Below, piece after piece: positions 4,552 through 47,949 of a stretch of 52,480 bases of DNA (positions are counted from its first letter, which is position 1; each line of letters starts with the position of its first letter). This DNA comes from a virus (Duplodnaviria; Heunggongvirae; Uroviricota; Caudoviricetes). The position numbers were made by a program, and so were the translations under genes. A model generated the notes under the pieces. The model was not told where the DNA came from. It made no database searches and saw only the letters and a list, made by a program, of their open reading frames with translations. The DNA is taken from IMG/VR virus record IMGVR_UViG_2740892112_000005. The stretch is one strand, 5' to 3'.

Positions 4552-7500
4552 TCAGCTAATCGTGATGCCTGCAGTGGCTTTCTTCATCACAACAACCAGC
4601 AAATCGCTGATACTTGCTGTGGGATACCAGCCATTTACCCACCATGCTGATACAGAAAACTCCAGCGTCATGTGACCGCGACCAGCAGGCATATCAATAA
4701 CACCACTGTAAACCAGCGTATTATCCAGCGCGGTACGGTTATAAATTTCAGCACCGTTTTTCTTCACTATCAGGCGGCATGACGAATAAGTATCGCTGTT
4801 CTCCCGCTCATGTCTGGCACCGCTGAAAGCCACCGCCGGAATAACAATCTGCCGGTTAAACGGCTGATCGTCATAAACCCTGACGGTAATGGTTCCTGAT
4901 GGCCAACGCTCCGGTGCACGGGAGTCACGAGGGAAAGCCTTACCCACTGTTTTAACGAGATCGCCTTCAATCTGGTTTGCAGACAGTTTCCCTCTGATGA
5001 CACAGTTCTCGTTAATGGTGACATTATTGAGCGTGCCGGTATTCGCCGTGATGGCTCCACTGATATCCGCATTGCGGGCTGTCAGCCTGCCATCCGGCGT
5101 CAGGGAAAACGTCGGAGGATTGCCGGATGACGTGATGCTCACCGCAAACAGTCGCTTCAGGAACACGTCGTTCATGAACAGCTGATTCCCCTGCGCCACA
5201 AACAGCGGCGTGGTGTTGCCGTTCTCCGGGGTAATCATCGCAATGCGATCGGCCTGCAGCAGAATGTTACTCAGGGTCTGACCATCAACATCCTCAATCC
5301 CCGCGCCAATCCCGGCCACATAGGGAATACCGTTTTTTGTTTTCTGCACCTTCAGCATATACATGGCATTCAGCTCATTGCGCGTGTCTGACTGAACCCG
5401 CTGGATTTGCTGTATGGTCACGGCCTGGTCACCCAGCTTTTTATCCGTGGTCGAGGTAATTTCACTCCCTTTTTTATCCACGTACTGGCGGACCTGTGCT
5501 ATCTGTCGGGCGTTTTCTGACTGCCCCTGGCTGACAGTCTGTGAGATTTCACTGCTCACCCGGTCCACTTTCTGGCTCACCTGCGCGATGGCCAGTGTCT
5601 GGTCCTCATTCTTTTTCGCAACCAGCTGCGTGAGGCTGTTTTCCGCCTTCCCGATTTTCCGGGTCACTTCTGCGATATCCGTGTCCATCCGCTGACGGAT
5701 ATCTTCTTCCAGTTGCGTGACCTCCGTACGCAGCGCTGAAGCATCAATGCGCTCTTTCAGTGCCTGGCCCAGAAGCGTCTCATCTATCAGCCCCCGGAAA
5801 ATTTCCAGATACCCTTCACCATCATTGCTGGGCTGCCCGCTGGCTTCCACAAAAGCAGATTTTCCCACCAGGTTGACGCTTCGCACGTAAAACCAGAAAT
5901 CCGTCCCCGGCTTAATCCGGCTCCCCTGGACAGTCCACTGACTGCCGGTCCCCAGATAACGGGCAGATTTTTCCACCTGTGCTGTGTTCGTGATGCGTTT
6001 TTCTGAGAACCAGAATTCAAACTGTACCGTCGGGTCATACACCGCAAGACGCGGGACCGCCGTTATCTGAAAATACCCCGGCGTCAGTTCAATGGTGGCG
6101 GGTTTTGCTGGCGCGTTAATCCGGAAGGTGGTGGTGGCCGGTTCGCCCTGCTGGCCATAACTGTTAATCGCCCTGACCGTCAGGGTGTATTCCCCCAGTG
6201 GCAGGCCACTGAAACGGTGCTCCGTATCGGCAGTGATGGCGGTGGTCACCAGTCTGGCATCCGCTCCCTTACCACTGGTCAGGCGCAGACTGAAGCGCAC
6301 ACCCTTCACCACCCGCGGCGTGTCCCATTTCGCCTGCGCCAGATACTGGCCGTCAGCTGCGCTCACCTCCACCGTCAGGTGCTGCACTGCCGGTGGGATG
6401 ACGCTGTTCAGGGAACCTGACTGCGGCTCAAAGCGGGCACCGTTATCCACGATGGCTTCTTTTTCCGGTACGTGCTGCACCGCCGTGATGGCAAAGGTGC
6501 CGTCCGTGTTTTCCCGGACGGAGACACAGCGGAACAGGCGACGGCGCAGTGACGGCAGGGAGAGTCCCCACACCCCGTATGTCTCCACACCATCAGGCAG
6601 GGTACTGACCTGTATCCGGTCCGGCGCGGGGTGTTCGGTGATGTCCACACTCACCGGCTTACCACTGCCGTTAATCAGGTTCACCGTGGCGGCACCGGTC
6701 TCCGGCAGTGTCACTTCACGGTCCAGCGTCAGGGTGCGGGTGGCAGCATCAATGGACAGGACACGTCCGCCGGTCAGGGTCCCGGCATAGTCGTTATCAC
6801 AGATTTCAATGATGTCACCGGGTGTGTGCCGCAGCCCCTGAGACCCGAGCGTGAAATCCACCGTCTGCGTTTCCAGCAGTTCGGTCTTTATCACCCACAG
6901 CCCGGCACGGTGGGCCTGACCGCGGCTGGTACAGCCGAACGCGTCCATCTTCAGCAGGTTGCGTCCGTAGCGCAGTATGGCTTCCGGGTCTTCCACCAGT
7001 TCCGTGGATGTCTGCCAGCCGTTCTGCGGGTCGGTGTAATTCACCTCCACCGCCGTGTGCCGGTCCTTCAGGGCACTGAAGCTGTAGCGGAATCCCACGC
7101 CGTTATCATCCACCACCACATCGCTGTTGGTGTACGGCCACACCACATCCGACGGGCGGTCCTGAACGAACGTCAGCGTCTGACCGTTCCATACCGGCAT
7201 ACAGCGCATCGCAGAGCAGAAATCACTGAGAACGTCCCACGCCTTACGCTGTTGTGCCAGGTACGCATTAAAGGTCATCCGCGGCTCGGTCCCCCCGAAA
7301 CCATCCGGGACCGTCTGGTCGCAGTACTGCCCGATGGCATACAGCGCCCACTTGTCCACATCCGCCGCCCCCAGACGTTTTCCCATGCCGTAGCGCGGGT
7401 GAGTCAGCATGTCCCACAGACACCAGGCCGGATTGTTGCTGTATGCCGGTTTCAGACTGCCGTCCCAGATACCACTGTACGTGCGTTTTTCCGGGTCATA

Positions 7501-8244
7501 GTTTGACGGCACCTGAATGATGCGACCGCGGATATGGTAGTTCACCGTCATCTGCTGGCCGCCGAACTGCTCCGCATCCACCTGCAGCCCCACAATGGCC
7601 GTGTTCGGGTAGCACTGTTTCACATCGATGATTTCAGTGTACGATGACCAGAGCGTTCTGTTCTGCAACTGGTCCGTGGTGCTGTCCGCCGTCTCCCGGA
7701 CCATCCGGATGTTAAAGGGCCGGGGCGGCAGATTATCCAGAATCACCGAGGCCAGGAACTGCGAGGTGGTCTTGCCGTTAATGGTGACATCCTTTTCCGT
7801 CACCCAGCGGCCATTACGCTGTAACTGAATCAGCAGGCGGACGGATGCCGGGTTACGGTCGCCCTTTGACGTGGTCTGCACCAGTGACTGCACCCCGAAG
7901 GTAACCCGCAGGCGGTCAATGTTCGCGGACGTAATGGTGCGCGTCACCGGCTTTGCCTTCGTCACTTCCACACCCAGTCCGGTTTCAGCTCCGGAGGACT
8001 CAAAGCCTTCCGGTGGTGTCTGCTCCTGCTCCCCGGCACGCCAGACCGCCGTCACACCGTGTATCACGGGATTGCCGTCCGTGTCCGTCAGCGGGGTTTT
8101 GTTCACCAGAATACTCTGCAGTCCCTTCACCGGACCTTCTATCGGTCCCTCACCAATCGCATCAATCACACTCATCATCTGCGTGGATTTGAGATTATCC
8201 TTCGCCTCACGAGGCGTGTGTGCCTTACCGCCACCTTTTCCCAT
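4552..8244 (-). CDS. J: tail tip / host specificity protein J (central tail fibre)
   Basis: 1230 aa; size, position after I and general lambda gpJ-like sequence character. Confidence 0.9.
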
Positions 8245-8347
8245 ACAGCCTTCCCCTGAATAAATTAACCGCCACTTGCCATTCCGTACAGAAGTCGGAT
8301 ATCCTTCGCCCGAAAAGCATGAAACACATTTCTGCCATGCTAAAGAG

Positions 8348-8383
8348 AAACCCCGGTATCAGCAGATACCGGGGTTTTCTTTC
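8348..8383. terminator. bidirectional hairpin terminator inside the I-J intergenic insertion
   Basis: 8-bp stem CCCCGGTA/TACCGGGG flanked by T-rich tracts on both strands. Confidence 0.4.
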
Positions 8384-8449
8384 ATGCCCACCGATAATCC
8401 TGTTGGTTAAAACCGGTAATGGCATAAAAATTCTGAATATCTTCACATT

Positions 8450-8477
8450 TTCACAAAATCCCTGTGGCACTTATAAT
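8450..8477 (+). promoter_or_regulatory. near-consensus sigma70 promoter (TTCACA-16 bp-TATAAT) in the I-J intergenic insertion
   Basis: Direct read of -35 TTCACA at 8450-8455 and -10 TATAAT at 8472-8477 on + strand. Confidence 0.4.
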
Positions 8478-8483
8478 TTCTCT

Positions 8484-8578
8484 GCGTTAATTTTTTTTGT
8501 CGTGACATAAGAATAATTATCTATAGTTGATCTTCGTAACGCTCCCGCAGCTCCGCAACTCTGCGGGATTTTTTTATT
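8484..8578 (+). ncRNA. candidate small RNA (about 95 nt) from promoter to intrinsic terminator, antisense to tail operon direction
   Basis: No ORF of significance between promoter and terminator (CCCGCAG...CTGCGGG + TTTTTTT at 8544-8578). Confidence 0.3.
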
Positions 8579-8582
8579 CTTT

Positions 8583-9263
8583 TTACCCCTGCCGCCCGAT
8601 AACCACGACCTTTCCGCCCCCGCCTTCATCACGGGTGCTGATGTCCTGGGATATACGGCGGGAGCCAACCAGCATTTCCCCGTAAGGCACCGGCATCGGG
8701 TTCCCCTGGGCAATCATGTTATCCAGCGAGGAAAAGTACGTGTTCTGTCTGCCGTTATCCGTTGCGCGGTAATCCGGTGTTTTTGCCTTCGGGGCCAGCA
8801 TCTGGGCCACTCCGCCCAGTATCATGCTGGCACCCAGTGAAAACAGCATCGTGGTGGCAGAAAAACCACCGGCACTCAGGGCTGTACCCCATAACGCCAT
8901 CGAGCCTCCGGCCGTGAAGAAAGAGCCCACGATGGCTGCCGCCCCCAGCACAATCTGCAGTCCGCCCTTTCCGGCTCCGGCCAGTCGCGGCACAATGTGG
9001 ATGACCGTTCCCTCACCCAGCTGTTCGTGAAGACGGGCGTACACCGCCTCCGGTGCCGTGTCATCACCGGCAATACGTATCTGGTACCAGCCTTCGTTCA
9101 TCTGACGGCGAAAGCCCGGCACCTGTAACGACAGGGCACGGATGGCTTCCGCTGCCGTGTTCACATACAGGCTGAGGCGGCGGCCAAATCGTTGCAAATC
9201 CCCGTGAAGGCAGATGCGTGCCAGTGGCGGTGACGCCAGACAGAATGCGTTCGTCGTTGCCAT
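8583..9263 (-). CDS. I: tail assembly protein I
   Basis: C-terminal Gly/Ala-rich hydrophobic region like lambda gpI; true start probably internal because ORF overlaps K. Confidence 0.8.
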   Translation of the reverse strand: MATTNAFCLASPPLARICLHGDLQRFGRRLSLYVNTAAEAIRALSLQVPGFRRQMNEGWYQIRIAGDDTAPEAVYARLHEQLGEGTVIHIVPRLAGAGKGGLQIVLGAAAIVGSFFTAGGSMALWGTALSAGGFSATTMLFSLGASMILGGVAQMLAPKAKTPDYRATDNGRQNTYFSSLDNMIAQGNPMPVPYGEMLVGSRRISQDISTRDEGGGGKVVVIGRQG

Positions 9264-30115: not shown

Positions 30116-30297
30116 GAATCCTCCCGGCCGGGATAATATTGTGAGTAAAATAAGGAGCGGGCTGAAGTCCGGAAGTTACAGGACAATGGCAGAAGAGAGA
30201 CGACAGCCCGCAATTCGAAAAAGACCGCGCAGTTGCGCAGCCTTATGAATTCTGGTTAAAATCCATTCGATTATAAAAATGTATATCTCATGCTGTT

Positions 30298-30322
30298 GCC
30301 CGAACCCACTCGGGCTTTTTTT
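30298..30322 (+). terminator. intrinsic terminator on + strand
   Basis: GCCCGAACCCACTCGGGC hairpin followed by TTTTTTT. Confidence 0.4.
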
Positions 30323-30590
30323 GCCCACAAGAAAGCCCCTCCGGAGAGGGGCTAAAGCCGCGTATCTGTATCATCATGCACATGGTGCCGGGTGCCTCCC
30401 GGTGAGTTCAGCCCGGTGCCACTAAACCCGCGTCATTCTCGTTTTGATAATCAGAGATTATACCGTCACCAGTCGCCCCTCCGCTCAGGGGGATTCACCA
30501 TGCGAAATTTTTTTAACAAATGCCCAGTCTGACAGGCAACTGTCAACTTACTGAATTGTGAGCAACATAGCATTTAACGGGGAACCTGTT
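30315..30590 (-). repeat. structured non-coding module, copy B (paralogue of 30815-31075), ending in an intrinsic terminator
   Basis: Shares with copy A the blocks CATGGTGAATCCCCCTG.GCGGAGGGGC, ACTCACCGGGAGGCACCCGGCACCATG and the terminator AGCCCCTCTCCGGAGGGGCT + U-run (- strand). Confidence 0.5.
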
Positions 30591-30599
30591 TTCTGCAGT

Positions 30600-30627
30600 A
30601 AAAAGGCCCACCGGAGCGGATGGGCCT
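30600..30627 (-). terminator. intrinsic terminator on - strand
   Basis: GGCCCA...TGGGCC hairpin followed by TTTTT on - strand. Confidence 0.4.
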
Positions 30628-30814
30628 GGAAGGATAGCGGTCATGTGATGCCGGTTTCCCGGTAACTCAGCACCGGTATCTGAGTCAACGTTTTCTCTAC
30701 TGGGTCATTTCCGATACGCCCTGCCTGCTGACAGGCTTTCATCACATCTGAAAATATAGCACCCTGACTGATACTGTAGTACCTAAGGTTCCAGAAACTG
30801 TGATGTATCCGGCA

Positions 30815-31075
30815 CAGAAAAGCCCCTCCGGAGAGGGGCTGGAGAGTGGCACTATGTGCCATTGCATGGTGCCGGGTGCCTCCCGGTGAGTTCAGTATCA
30901 GCACCTGAACCCGCACAGAAAGGATAAGGGTCGGTGACAAAACACCAGTTGCTGATTGCCCCTCCGCACAGGGGGATTCACCATGCCAGTTTCTTTTAAC
31001 AAACTCCCCGCAAACCAGACAACAGTCAACCGCCTGAATTGTGAGGTATTTAAAAATTTCAACGGGTAACTGATA
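30815..31075 (-). repeat. structured non-coding module, copy A, ending in an intrinsic terminator
   Basis: See copy B; terminator hairpin at 30821-30840 with U-run on - strand. Confidence 0.5.
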
Positions 31076-31080
31076 CCCTG

Positions 31081-31233
31081 CTAATCGCCTGATGCTTTCT
31101 TTTTCAGCAACGGGAAAGCAACAACCACCACACCCGCCACCAGCACACCGTCAGCCAGCACTGACATTATCCGGCTGCTGAAGTCCACCATCACCACCAG
31201 AAACAGCAGGAGCGCAACCACAGCCAGACGCAT
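31081..31233 (-). CDS. 50-aa hydrophobic peptide (two predicted TM segments), 8 nt downstream of TerB-like gene
   Basis: MRLAVVALLLFLVVMVDFSSRIMSVLADGVLVAGVVVVAFPLLKKKASGD; weak RBS, below the 60-aa ORF-track threshold. Confidence 0.3.
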   Translation of the reverse strand: MRLAVVALLLFLVVMVDFSSRIMSVLADGVLVAGVVVVAFPLLKKKASGD

Positions 31234-31241
31234 TTTTACCG

Positions 31242-31673
31242 TCACAGATGATTCTCCAGACGAAGGCCCAGAACACCGGCAATCTCTTCCAGCACCTTGC
31301 GCTCTTCCGGCTCTATTTCGCCGTCTGCTTCGGCAATGGCCACCGCCACATCCAGCACGTCTTCCGCTTCACGCGTATCGTGTTTCACATCCTCGATCTC
31401 ACGTAACGCCGCACGACGACCAATTTTAAAGTTCGTATCCAGCTGACCGATAATGGTTGCGCTAATCGCATTAATTTCTGACGTAAACGCGGACAAGGTG
31501 GGCTGGTTACGTAATACCTGTTCGATCTTCGCTTTCTCGGAAGCCTCACATTCACCATCGGCATAAGCCACCAGGTATGCAGCGTTAATCACTGCCTGTG
31601 CCAGATCGCGTTTTTCAAACTTTTTAATTTCCGCAGACGCTCTGCGGGTTTTCTTTTTGAAGATTCCAAGCAT
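31242..31673 (-). CDS. TerB-like (tellurite-resistance TerB domain) protein
   Basis: 143 aa from internal Met with AAGGAA RBS; paired motifs ...AVINAAYLVAYADGECEASE... and ...VLDVAVAIAEADGEIEPEE... typical of TerB-like repeats. Confidence 0.55.
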   Translation of the reverse strand: MLGIFKKKTRRASAEIKKFEKRDLAQAVINAAYLVAYADGECEASEKAKIEQVLRNQPTLSAFTSEINAISATIIGQLDTNFKIGRRAALREIEDVKHDTREAEDVLDVAVAIAEADGEIEPEERKVLEEIAGVLGLRLENHL

Positions 31674-31843
31674 TGTGACGTTCCTTTGGGTGGGTGAGCC
31701 AACGCCCGGGAGCGATCTGCCCACAGAGAAAGTCACACTGACCACTCCGTAAGCTCACCCCCGAAAGGCTCTGTGGTTGATATGCGCCGGGCGTGGCGCG
31801 GATACAAAAAAGGCCCGCAAAAGCGAGCCGGGAAAAATAAGTC

Positions 31844-31920
31844 TGGCGCGTTGTACTGGATTCGAACCAGTGACCGATTGCTTAGAAGGCAATTGCTCTG
31901 TCCGGCTGAGCTAACAACGC
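31844..31920 (-). tRNA. argO: tRNA-Arg (anticodon UCU)
   Basis: Cloverleaf folded by hand: GCGTTGT acceptor, anticodon loop CTTCTAA, T-loop TTCGAAT, 3' CCA encoded. Confidence 0.85.
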
Positions 31921-31934
31921 AGAATGCCGATAAA

Positions 31935-32011
31935 TGGACCGCCATCGAGGACTCGAACCCCGCGCAACCAGCTTCGAAGGCTGGCGCTCTATCCCGATGA
32001 GCTAATGGCGG
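31935..32011 (-). tRNA. argN: tRNA-Arg (anticodon UCG)
   Basis: Cloverleaf folded by hand: anticodon stem CCAGC/GCTGG, loop CTTCGAA, T-loop TTCGAGT, CCA encoded. Confidence 0.8.
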
Positions 32012-32020
32012 TATGTGATA

Positions 32021-32096
32021 TGGTGGCCCTTGCTGGATTTGAACCAGCGACCTGGCGATTATGAGTCGCTCGCTCTCACCACTGAGCTAAAGGGCC
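32021..32096 (-). tRNA. ileZ: tRNA-Ile2-like (anticodon CAU, ileX/ileZ-type)
   Basis: GGCCCTT acceptor, anticodon loop CTCATAA, very similar to E. coli ileX; cannot exclude elongator Met identity from sequence alone. Confidence 0.8.
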
Positions 32097-33769: not shown

Positions 33770-34591
33770 CTATCGCGTTACCCTCTTTAACTGCCGCTCC
33801 GCCCATGCCTCTTCAATGTCAAACCGAACCACCAACGTATCGTAAAAGCGTTTCACTGATTTTTTCCACGTATCAAGCGTGATAGCACTCGTCACTTTGC
33901 ATATGGCATTAAATGCCTCCGTTGATGGCAGCCTTTCACAGCCACGACCACCACAACGCTGGCAATCTCTGATAACAGGCATACCACGTTTTACCGACTC
34001 TTCACGATGAATGGCGACACCACGCCCACGGCAATCCTTACAGGCGGTGGAAACCTCACCCTTTCCGCCACACTCCGGACAGGCAACTTTTACCACCTCC
34101 CTGACTTTTTTCCATTCTTCCCAGTAAGACGGATACACGCCTTTTGTGCACTTTGCCCACACTGGTGGCTTACCATCCGGATACTGGATCTTGTTTGTAA
34201 AAACCTCGCTTTCAATAAATTTTTTTCCGTGACAGCAGGGGCACTGTTTTTTGCTCGCCGCGCTACGGGCATAATCTTCAAACGCATACGAAGCCATAAT
34301 GCGCATCACTACCGGTTTTATTTCTGCCGGAAGTTTTCTCAACGCCGCCACACGATCGCACCGACTGAGTGCATAATCTGCCAGTAATTCTGTTGCCCGC
34401 GCCCTGTCATTCATACTGATGCCCATTTTCCCCAGGAACGCAGAAAACCCCATCTCAGCCCGATTCTGTGTCATGCCCTGCGCGGCCATCACATCAGTGA
34501 TACTCAGCGCATCTTTTGACGTTGAGGCCGATGCATCGGTCAGGCCAGGGGATTTTGGGGAGTAGTATTTCGGTAAATCTTCCAGTTTCAT
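33770..34591 (-). CDS. Q: late antiterminator Q (phage 82/QuuQ-like, zinc-finger)
   Basis: 273-aa ORF with several CxxC pairs; sits between RusA and pR-prime. Confidence 0.7.
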   Translation of the reverse strand: MKLEDLPKYYSPKSPGLTDASASTSKDALSITDVMAAQGMTQNRAEMGFSAFLGKMGISMNDRARATELLADYALSRCDRVAALRKLPAEIKPVVMRIMASYAFEDYARSAASKKQCPCCHGKKFIESEVFTNKIQYPDGKPPVWAKCTKGVYPSYWEEWKKVREVVKVACPECGGKGEVSTACKDCRGRGVAIHREESVKRGMPVIRDCQRCGGRGCERLPSTEAFNAICKVTSAITLDTWKKSVKRFYDTLVVRFDIEEAWAERQLKRVTR

Positions 34592-38585: not shown

Positions 38586-38741
38586 TTACTCCTCAGGTTC
38601 GTAAGCTGTGAAGACAGCGACCTCCGTCTGGCCGGTTCGGATTCGTACCTCGCAGAGGTCTTTCCTCGTTACCAGTGCCGTCACAATGACGGTTAAACAG
38701 ATGACGATCAGGGCGATTAGCATCGCCTTTTGCTGCTTCAT
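38586..38741 (-). CDS. hok: Hok-family type I toxin (hok/gef-like); the longer in-frame ORF to 38798 may correspond to the mok-like upstream frame
   Basis: 51 aa MKQQKAMLIALIVICLTVIVTALVTRKDLCEVRIRTGQTEVAVFTAYEPEE; AAGGAGA RBS; Hok family hallmark TM + C-terminal Cys/charged tail. Confidence 0.8.
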   Translation of the reverse strand: MKQQKAMLIALIVICLTVIVTALVTRKDLCEVRIRTGQTEVAVFTAYEPEE

Positions 38742-39032
38742 AGCCTGCTTCTCCTTGCCTTTCGGCACGTAAGAGGCTAACCTACGTGTGTAGAGCATAG
38801 ATATGGCCTCAGATTAATGTTAAGCGTCTTGCCGGACGCGTAATGTTAACTGGGGCTTTTCTCTATCTGCCTTTTGGTGTTCATGCCTGAGACAGATAGC
38901 CTCAAGCACCCGCTGCAATTCTACTTAACTCTCCTTTTCCCGCAAACCGTTTTTATCCCCAGCGGCAAATCGAATACACCACCAGCGCCACCGCCATCGC
39001 AATTCCTACCGTTGTTAATGCTTCAGGCCAGG

Positions 39033-47891: not shown

Positions 47892-47949
47892 TTTCTGGTG
47901 ACGTTTGGCGGTATCAGTTTTACTCCGTGACTGCTCTGCCGCCCTTTTT
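47892..47949 (+). ncRNA. dicF: DicF small RNA (cell-division inhibitor sRNA) with intrinsic terminator
   Basis: TTTCTGGTGACGTTTGGCGGTATCAGTTTTACTCCGTGACTGCTCTGCCGCCCTTTTT matches the DicF sequence as I recall it; immediately upstream of dicB. Confidence 0.7.

Follow-up and report, generated by a model that had tools for sequence, protein, structure and literature searches.

A predicted PasB-family small RNA gene with a divergent body in the gap between tail genes I and J of a prophage

The gap between tail genes I and J

The DNA analysed here, hereafter the window, is a stretch of 52,480 nucleotides from a tailed virus (Caudoviricetes; IMG/VR record IMGVR_UViG_2740892112_000005), a prophage of Escherichia coli, and the element of interest is a small RNA (sRNA) gene predicted in the gap between its tail genes I and J, which is assigned below to the family of PasB, an sRNA of enteropathogenic Escherichia coli (EPEC). 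Gene I was identified from the list of open reading frames (ORFs) together with a Pfam match (PF06805, Lambda_tail_I, E 6.6e-16), and gene J from the same list and the RefSeq gpJ annotation of the identical locus in ABU 83972. The gap measures 338 bp (8245-8582), in agreement with the 340 bp given in a first-pass annotation of the sequence. The same annotation had described I and J as adjacent in lambda, which is roughly correct, although a gap of 60 bp separates them there (I end 15444, J start 15505); that of the window is about 280 bases longer. Since the tail genes lie on the - strand, the + strand promoter found in the gap fires against the tail operon, a point on which the earlier description had to be corrected. 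The features of the locus are listed here by position.

4552-8244, - strand: gene J, tail tip / host-specificity gene, the downstream flank in the direction of the tail operon
8245-8335, no strand assigned: J-proximal remainder of the 'long' gap type, with the J ribosome-binding region at its left end
8336-8386, no strand assigned: second hairpin (core palindrome 8349-8376), terminator-like on both strands, between the pasB promoter and J
8425-8449, + strand: A+T-rich block directly upstream of the -35 element, conserved in all alleles (alignments with E2348/69, EC958, Sakai and others)
8450-8477, + strand: sigma-70 promoter of the pasB-like gene (-35 TTCACA at 8450-8455, 16-nt spacer, -10 TATAAT at 8472-8477)
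8484-8575, + strand: predicted PasB-family sRNA of 92 nt, its start placed at G8484, the seventh nucleotide after the -10 element
8486-8517, + strand: A-U-rich 5' stem-loop of the family consensus predicted by RNAalifold, rivalled in the window by an allele-specific middle hairpin
8527-8535, + strand: conserved core UUGAUCUUC, a candidate seed, in the stretch just upstream of the terminator
8543-8575, + strand: Rho-independent terminator and presumed Hfq-binding 3' module (stem 8543-8550 / 8561-8568, U7 8569-8575)
8583-9263, - strand: gene I, tail assembly gene, the upstream flank in the direction of the tail operon

The TTCACA-16-TATAAT promoter that had been proposed at 8450-8477 was recovered by a promoter scan with 11 of 12 consensus matches. 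No other site in the window, whichever the strand, reaches 11/12, and dinucleotide shuffles of the sequence contained a mean of 0.36 such promoters. The hairpin and U-run previously placed at 8544-8578, about 65 nt further on, correspond to a perfect, G+C-rich 8-bp terminator stem followed by its U-tract (8543-8575), 66 nt past the promoter, and a strong promoter followed by a terminator of this kind after 30-150 nt occurred in one of 200 shuffles. The A+T-rich block at 8425-8449 may be an UP element or the site of a regulator. Between promoter and terminator, an RNA of about 95 nt without an ORF had been expected, and the transcript now predicted (8484-8575) is 92 nt long and contains no ORF beyond two codons; if the 5' end is set by that published for PasB, the RNA would instead run from 8498 to 8575 (78 nt). 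The predicted RNA is confined to the gap, without overlap with any coding sequence. Its U-tract ends 8 nt from the I stop codon, its start lies 240 nt from the J start, and no ribosome-binding site is overlapped.

No Rfam model matched inside 8245-8582 when the whole window was searched at the gathering score, and a search of 8100-8750 at E values up to 10 returned only weak, terminator-type chance matches, the best of them scoring 27.3 bits against a cut-off of 48. The matches, to SSRC34_2, STnc310, CopA and GcvB among others, were set aside as weak terminator look-alikes. AgvB and AsxR were also rejected as identities of the gap RNA, as these RNAs map downstream of the antiterminator gene Q rather than at the tail genes and their Rfam models miss the gap. 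A protein-coding insert was considered and discarded: the ORFs of the gap (44, 81 and 96 amino acids) have no Pfam match, the sequences of long and short gaps are unrelated, and the insertions and deletions between alleles are not multiples of three.

Membership in the PasB and EcOnc22/23/24 family

The family was sampled independently of the transcribed body by searching phage contigs with a 25-nt promoter block (8431-8455), present as a single copy in the window. More than 120 phage contigs carry this block unchanged, and together with a set of E. coli genome loci they provided 127 loci. In 118 of the 127 loci the block is followed, after 154-165 nt, by a homologue of I, and in 124 the N-terminus of J was located upstream of the pasB promoter; both genes, wherever found, were always on the strand opposite to the sRNA. 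Comparison with the I-J junctions of related prophages, which had been recommended as a check, revealed a homologous sRNA unit in the same gap and in strict synteny. Thirty-four distinct transcribed alleles were distinguished, all built of interchangeable modules: the promoter, the RAUCUU core (invariant in 34/34 alleles) and the terminator stem are fixed, the 5' bodies are swapped, and intermediate mosaic alleles bridge the PasB type and the type of the window. The combination of a fixed promoter, core and terminator with a variable body fits an expressed sRNA. A covariance model constructed from 20 alleles, with the window allele and its close sub-class left out, matched 8484-8575 over its full length with 90.5 bits (E 9.5e-17), the next match in the window scoring 16.8 bits. 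As judged from sequence, membership of the window RNA in the sRNA family of the I-J gap (PasB/EcOnc22) is secure.

Two of the sampled loci (L038, a viral contig, and L128, a GTDB contig) carry an insertion that splits the pasB promoter between the -35 and -10 elements. The end of the insertion reads TGAACCGCCCCGGGAATCCTGGAGACTAAACTCCC..., and it resembles an insertion sequence (IS) of the IS3 family such as IS629. Both loci are natural knock-outs of the sRNA gene.

PasB (pathogenicity-associated sRNA B) was described in prophage PP6 of EPEC O127:H6 E2348/69 (Pearl Mizrahi et al. 2021, PMC8550237) and is annotated as an RNA of 83 nt on the - strand of NC_011601.1, from 1466343 to 1466261 (PMC8550237, table S6). 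It is flanked by I and gpJ on the + strand, which places it in the I-J gap in antisense orientation to these tail genes; 6 nt separate its 3' end from the stop codon of I. The Northern probe for PasB, AATCCCGCAGTGATCGCGGAGCT (PMC8550237, table S6), targets the terminator module; the band observed was of the size predicted from RNA sequencing (RNA-seq), and stability of the RNA was found to depend on Hfq (PMC8550237), the log2 fold changes in an hfq deletion mutant being -6.79 and -2.39 (PMC8550237). The baseMean values of PasB, 482 under activating and 1,082 under non-activating conditions, compare with 4.8 for I and 15 for J (PMC8550237, table S2), an RNA-seq level 30-200 times that of the flanking tail genes. 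Therefore, PasB is transcribed on its own inside a silent operon. By RIL-seq (ligation of interacting RNAs followed by sequencing), 37 interactions were reported for PasB, which is nearly always the second RNA of the chimera, like canonical Hfq-associated sRNAs, and has a U-tract of 7 (PMC8550237). Among the RIL-seq entries listed, all partners lie elsewhere, and neither I, nor J, nor the I-J gap is one of them. A seed has been proposed for PasB in the stretch that precedes the terminator (Zhu, Shabalina and Storz 2026, bioRxiv 10.64898/2026.05.13.724894).

The unit in the window resembles PasB in its location in the I-J gap, its orientation against the tail genes, the promoter hexamers, the 16-nt spacer, the upstream A+T block and a similar length. 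The promoter block is about 90% identical between the two, the terminator stem and U7 are identical, and so is the 9-nt core UUGAUCUUC, where the PasB seed is proposed, whereas the flanks of the core differ. However, the transcribed part as a whole is 69% identical (58 of 84 aligned columns), with a longest common word of 15 nt, and the 5' body is different, only the 9-nt core being common to the two RNAs in their 5' two-thirds. The gap of E2348/69 is also shorter (240 bp, against the 338-bp 'long' gap of the window) and contains another second hairpin. A search with nhmmer using the E2348 PasB alone retrieved window positions 8505-8574 (E 4.6e-4), and blastn at word size 7 with the PasB query aligned 33 of its 83 nt, which correspond to the terminator.

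In the 2026 survey, PasB was defined by blastn with the E2348/69 query at word size 28 and a query cover above 75%, and its variants differ by few nucleotides only (bioRxiv 10.64898/2026.05.13.724894). The window was not retrieved with the settings of the survey (blastn, megablast with the E2348/69 query, word size 28). Because the variants of the survey differ by so little and its settings miss the window, the window allele, on these alignments, is outside what has been called PasB, as is the very common MS10858-type allele.

EcOnc22, EcOnc23 and EcOnc24 are three homologous copies in prophages Sp15, Sp14 and Sp11, respectively, of enterohaemorrhagic E. coli (EHEC) O157:H7 Sakai (Tree et al. 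2014, PMC4104026, table S2), for which a Northern band of about 85 nt, cross-linking to Hfq and destabilisation in an hfq deletion mutant were reported (PMC4104026, table S2). All three coordinates, read in NC_002695.2, point to 240-bp I-J gaps and to the strand that does not carry the tail genes. The paper used NC_002695.1, and calibration on AsxR (Rfam match 1268629-1268681, published position 1268494-1268542) gave an offset of approximately +135 to +139 between the two versions. The Sakai allele shares the upstream block and the terminator stem and U7 with the rest of the family, has the core AAUCUUC and a predicted length of 91 nt. At any offset from 128 to 142, the Hfq peaks from CRAC (cross-linking followed by cDNA analysis) lie over the body, core and the terminator's 5' arm. 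The likeness of EcOnc22-24 to the window unit extends to the gap, the strand relative to the tail genes, the upstream block and the terminator, whereas the body is of a third type, the gap is short and the -35 element at the canonical spacing is poor. At all three Sakai loci (L133, L134 and L135, in Sp15, Sp14 and Sp11, respectively) the -35 position reads TTCCGG, yet the RNA was detected on a Northern blot; the conserved upstream A+T block may be more important than the -35 element, or a factor may be involved.

From position and alignment we infer that EcOnc22-24 and PasB are the same locus, a link that is absent from both PasB papers. Two body types at the I-J locus are known to be expressed and Hfq-bound, in two pathovars. 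The suggestion of a lysogen-expressed sRNA in the first-pass annotation is thus supported by the homologues PasB and EcOnc22-24 in the same gap, with the reservation that the element was not new: it is already known by experiment as a family, of which the window copy is a divergent allele.

The consensus structure predicted by RNAalifold from 25 alleles consists of a 5' stem-loop, a single-stranded stretch with RAUCUU and the terminator. In the 5' stem, 96% of the cells are paired, as compared with 41-62% when the partner strand is slid, and at three pairs the body types differ by compensatory changes, with A-U replaced by G-C, for instance, or G-C by U-A. These changes probably reflect only few events, and the structural support that the modelling lends to the 5' stem is moderate. 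The terminator stem CCCGCAG/CUGCGGG is invariant in 24 of the 25 aligned alleles; because it does not vary, it gives no covariation signal. The minimum free energy fold of the window allele itself departs from the family consensus, and the predicted probability that the core is unpaired is 0.67-0.99 in the common alleles versus 0.41 in the window allele, for which a fold with the core free is only 1.6 kcal/mol costlier. The 5' stem uses 15 nt upstream of the published PasB 5' end, which suggests a primary transcript of approximately 92-98 nt. That published end was taken from RNA-seq coverage; judged by its TATAAT, the RNA should start 15 nt earlier (L001 2344-2359; window 8484-8497). PasB may first be made as a transcript of about 98 nt that is subsequently shortened, or the end annotated for it may be imprecise.

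Proposed function and alternative readings

Taken together, these data indicate, with a probability of roughly 0.8, that the gap holds a pasB-family gene encoding a lysogen-expressed, Hfq-dependent and trans-acting sRNA of about 92 nt. The unit is a self-contained, moron-like insertion with its own promoter and terminator, predicted to encode an sRNA and opposed in direction to the late tail operon. With the tail genes silent in the lysogen, the host sigma-70 RNA polymerase would start at about G8484 and stop at the hairpin and U7; the 3' hairpin and U-tract of the RNA would bind Hfq, and the stretch around UUGAUCUUC (8527-8535) would pair with mRNAs encoded elsewhere in the genome. For homologues, transcription in the lysogen with silent tail genes, binding and stabilisation by Hfq and pairing with mRNAs of the core and accessory genome have been reported (PMC8550237, PMC4104026). 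The target set of the window RNA probably overlaps that of PasB without being identical to it, because everything around the 9-nt core differs.

Several points weigh against this assignment. The expression, exact 5' end, seed and targets of the window allele are drawn from analogy, and the 5' end is uncertain, the published PasB end lying 15 nt downstream of the expectation based on the -10 element. The transcribed part is identical to PasB in only 58 of 84 columns, and sensitive blastn aligns the terminator only. In the fold predicted for the window RNA, an allele-specific hairpin takes up part of the core (0.41 unpaired). The seed of PasB is itself only a proposal, no common target motif was obtained for PasB in the original RIL-seq study (PMC8550237), and the targets of EcOnc22-24 were listed as unknown in a 2021 review.

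A different function, which we regard as unlikely, would be that of a cis-acting antisense RNA or attenuator, in which the RNA, convergent transcription and the second hairpin set the J:I ratio or silence stray expression of J in the lysogen; it would be compatible with a role in trans as well. The RNA is fully complementary to the intercistronic I-J part of the late mRNA, it is oriented oppositely at every locus with I (118) or J (124) of the 127, and its position is fixed within a few bases of the I stop. An antisense function had also been put forward in the first-pass annotation; however, the RNA overlaps no coding sequence or ribosome-binding site, ending 8 nt from the I stop and starting 240 nt from the J start, and is complementary only to the untranslated spacer between the two genes, so that the term finds no support in a functional sense. 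In the EPEC lysogen, I and J are near silent while PasB is abundant, no partner from I, J or the gap is among the RIL-seq entries listed, and PasB acts as a canonical Hfq-associated sRNA with 37 partners in trans. Furthermore, lambda assembles its tails without the insert.

The second hairpin bears on the same question. It had been noticed at 8348-8383 as U-rich on both strands, and is indeed real and very stable, extending over 8336-8386: the fold of 8335-8395 has a free energy of -28.7 kcal/mol on the + strand and -29.9 kcal/mol on the - strand (z -6.7 and -5.2, respectively, relative to shuffles), with a T/U-rich run after the hairpin on both strands. Between J and the pasB promoter, every gap class has a terminator-like hairpin whose T-run is on the tail-gene strand; the sequences that form it are unrelated in long and short gaps. 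Both its stability and its recurrence from unrelated sequences would favour an action in cis, and attenuation of read-through from I into J had been suggested on the strength of it. However, the prophage encodes a lambda-type Q antiterminator (33770-34591, - strand, PF03589, E 2e-49). In lambda, Q-modified polymerase reads through intrinsic terminators, and late transcription should therefore ignore them here, which argues against attenuation at the hairpin and against a cis function in a Q-driven late operon. Control of J by either the RNA or the hairpin, as had been envisaged, is consequently not supported, in view of the same lack of overlap with coding sequence or ribosome-binding sites and of I or J among the partners listed. 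The hairpin may serve to insulate J from transcription that has not been antiterminated.

We give little credence to the view that the window carries a decaying or neutral allele, that is, a pasB descendant whose RNA is not made or is inactive, the insert then amounting to a recombination scar. Few records contain this exact allele: 29 of 20,395 reach 99% identity, and only 73 records reach 95% over its body. Its core is predicted to be less accessible than that of the common alleles, and natural knock-outs with an IS in the promoter exist (L038 and L128). Against this, the promoter has the hexamers and spacing of the expressed E2348 allele and is the best match in the window, the terminator, U7 and conserved core are intact, the covariance model recognises a full-length family member, and the differences resemble the module swaps common to other alleles rather than random decay.

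Finally, and with low probability, the RNAs of the I-J gap might be a diversifying family whose substrate includes phage RNA, by which a lysogen cuts or silences J expression of co-resident or superinfecting relatives, each allele being perfectly complementary to the late-mRNA I-J spacer of phages of the same allele, with Hfq or RNase III involved; were this true, the mosaic, rapidly changing body behind a constant promoter, core and terminator would be a trace of an arms race between prophages and the tail-strand hairpin part of the same device.

As a presumed trans-acting sRNA of the lysogen, the window RNA can be set beside other prophage RNAs. PasA/PasC, PasD/STnc100, AgvB, AsxR and DicF are likewise short Hfq-associated RNAs with their own promoter/intrinsic terminator, placed between phage genes and expressed in the lysogen, but they map to other sites, either in the immunity region or past Q and the late promoter, and are unrelated to it in sequence. 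The unit also recalls the moron concept of lambdoid phages, which is said to go back to Juhala et al. in 2000, in being an extra promoter-cargo-terminator unit between genes that are adjacent in lambda (60-bp gap) and in its expression amid silent neighbours in the prophage, the latter being shown for the E2348 homologue only. It differs from a moron in that the cargo is RNA rather than protein and points against the late operon.

The de novo prediction of an sRNA was correct, and since this kind of gene had already been found by experiment, the result mainly validates the first-pass annotation. Beyond that, the sRNA family of the I-J gap is much broader and more mosaic than in the published survey, and body types missed by the BLAST settings of that survey are common. 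Treating PasB (2021) and EcOnc22/23/24 (2014) as one locus provides two independent experimental confirmations, in two pathovars and with two bodies, and the comparison adds the hint of a longer primary transcript. The family is also found in extraintestinal and commensal-like strains (for example ABU 83972), and 'pathogenicity-associated' may thus be too narrow a designation. If different bodies confer different targets, exchange of prophages would rewire post-transcriptional regulation of the host allele by allele.

Distribution and other features of the prophage

Of 5,426 complete E. coli genomes, 1,578 contain the 338-bp gap sequence, which carries no annotation there; it is 100% identical in ABU 83972 and about 28 other genomes. 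Bodies of the PasB-like kind occur in 1,418 of the 5,426 complete genomes, at up to 8 places per genome, and canonical PasB (164-nt query) in 1,099 genomes; the MS10858-type allele is the commonest in the phage-contig sample. Among species-representative genomes, the exact promoter block was found in E. albertii only, apart from two contamination-like short contigs. The latter, L128 (Asaia platycodi, 546 nt) and L130 (Streptomyces flavalbus, 3.4 kb), carry the pasB promoter block of E. coli phages, in L130 with a complete pasB-like allele, and are most likely contamination of those assemblies.

The J-proximal remainder of the gap (8245-8335) hardly differs, if at all, between any of the long-gap loci, and short-gap loci (those of E2348/69 and Sakai, for example) lack it. 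One long-gap viral contig (L069) is without exactly the 47-bp module of the second hairpin, equivalent to window positions 8333-8379, and the missing piece is flanked by TTTCT direct repeats, from which it follows that the hairpin is a small insertion or was lost by slippage. A dispersed palindromic element was rejected as its origin: it is present only with the I-J locus, and the two 'places' seen per genome reflect a palindrome that matches both strands. No - strand promoter that the hairpin could serve was found, either in the scan or by eye, and a second, divergent - strand sRNA ending at 8336-8386 is unsupported. A hotspot of insertion separates the pasB promoter from J: the distance is 1000 and 1447 nt in two viral loci, and in E. 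coli O157:H16 (L007 669-1424) the interval contains an annotated gene for a 172-amino-acid hypothetical protein and a partial ORF, on the tail-gene strand.

The open frame of I in the window is 681 nt long (226 amino acids), as compared with 582 nt (193 amino acids) for the RefSeq gene in ABU 83972 (ECABU_RS06005). About 100 nt of the frame are shared with the end of K, an overlap also present in lambda (I start 14773, K end 14875). The RefSeq start of gene I may be too far downstream.

Downstream of Q, a cluster of known prophage RNAs occupies 30268-32096, and comprises the following features.

30268-30320, + strand: AsxR-like match (Rfam score 63.0, exactly the gathering score)
30323-30532 and 30810-31015, - strand: STnc100 copies (Rfam)
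31847-32096, - strand: three tRNA genes

The AsxR-like RNA is present in a window that has no stx genes. Besides the pasB-like gene, the prophage contains at least six known or candidate regulatory RNAs, with further matches to the sok antitoxin RNA (117 bits, - strand) at 38736-38911 and to DicF (76.7 bits, + strand) at 47893-47944.

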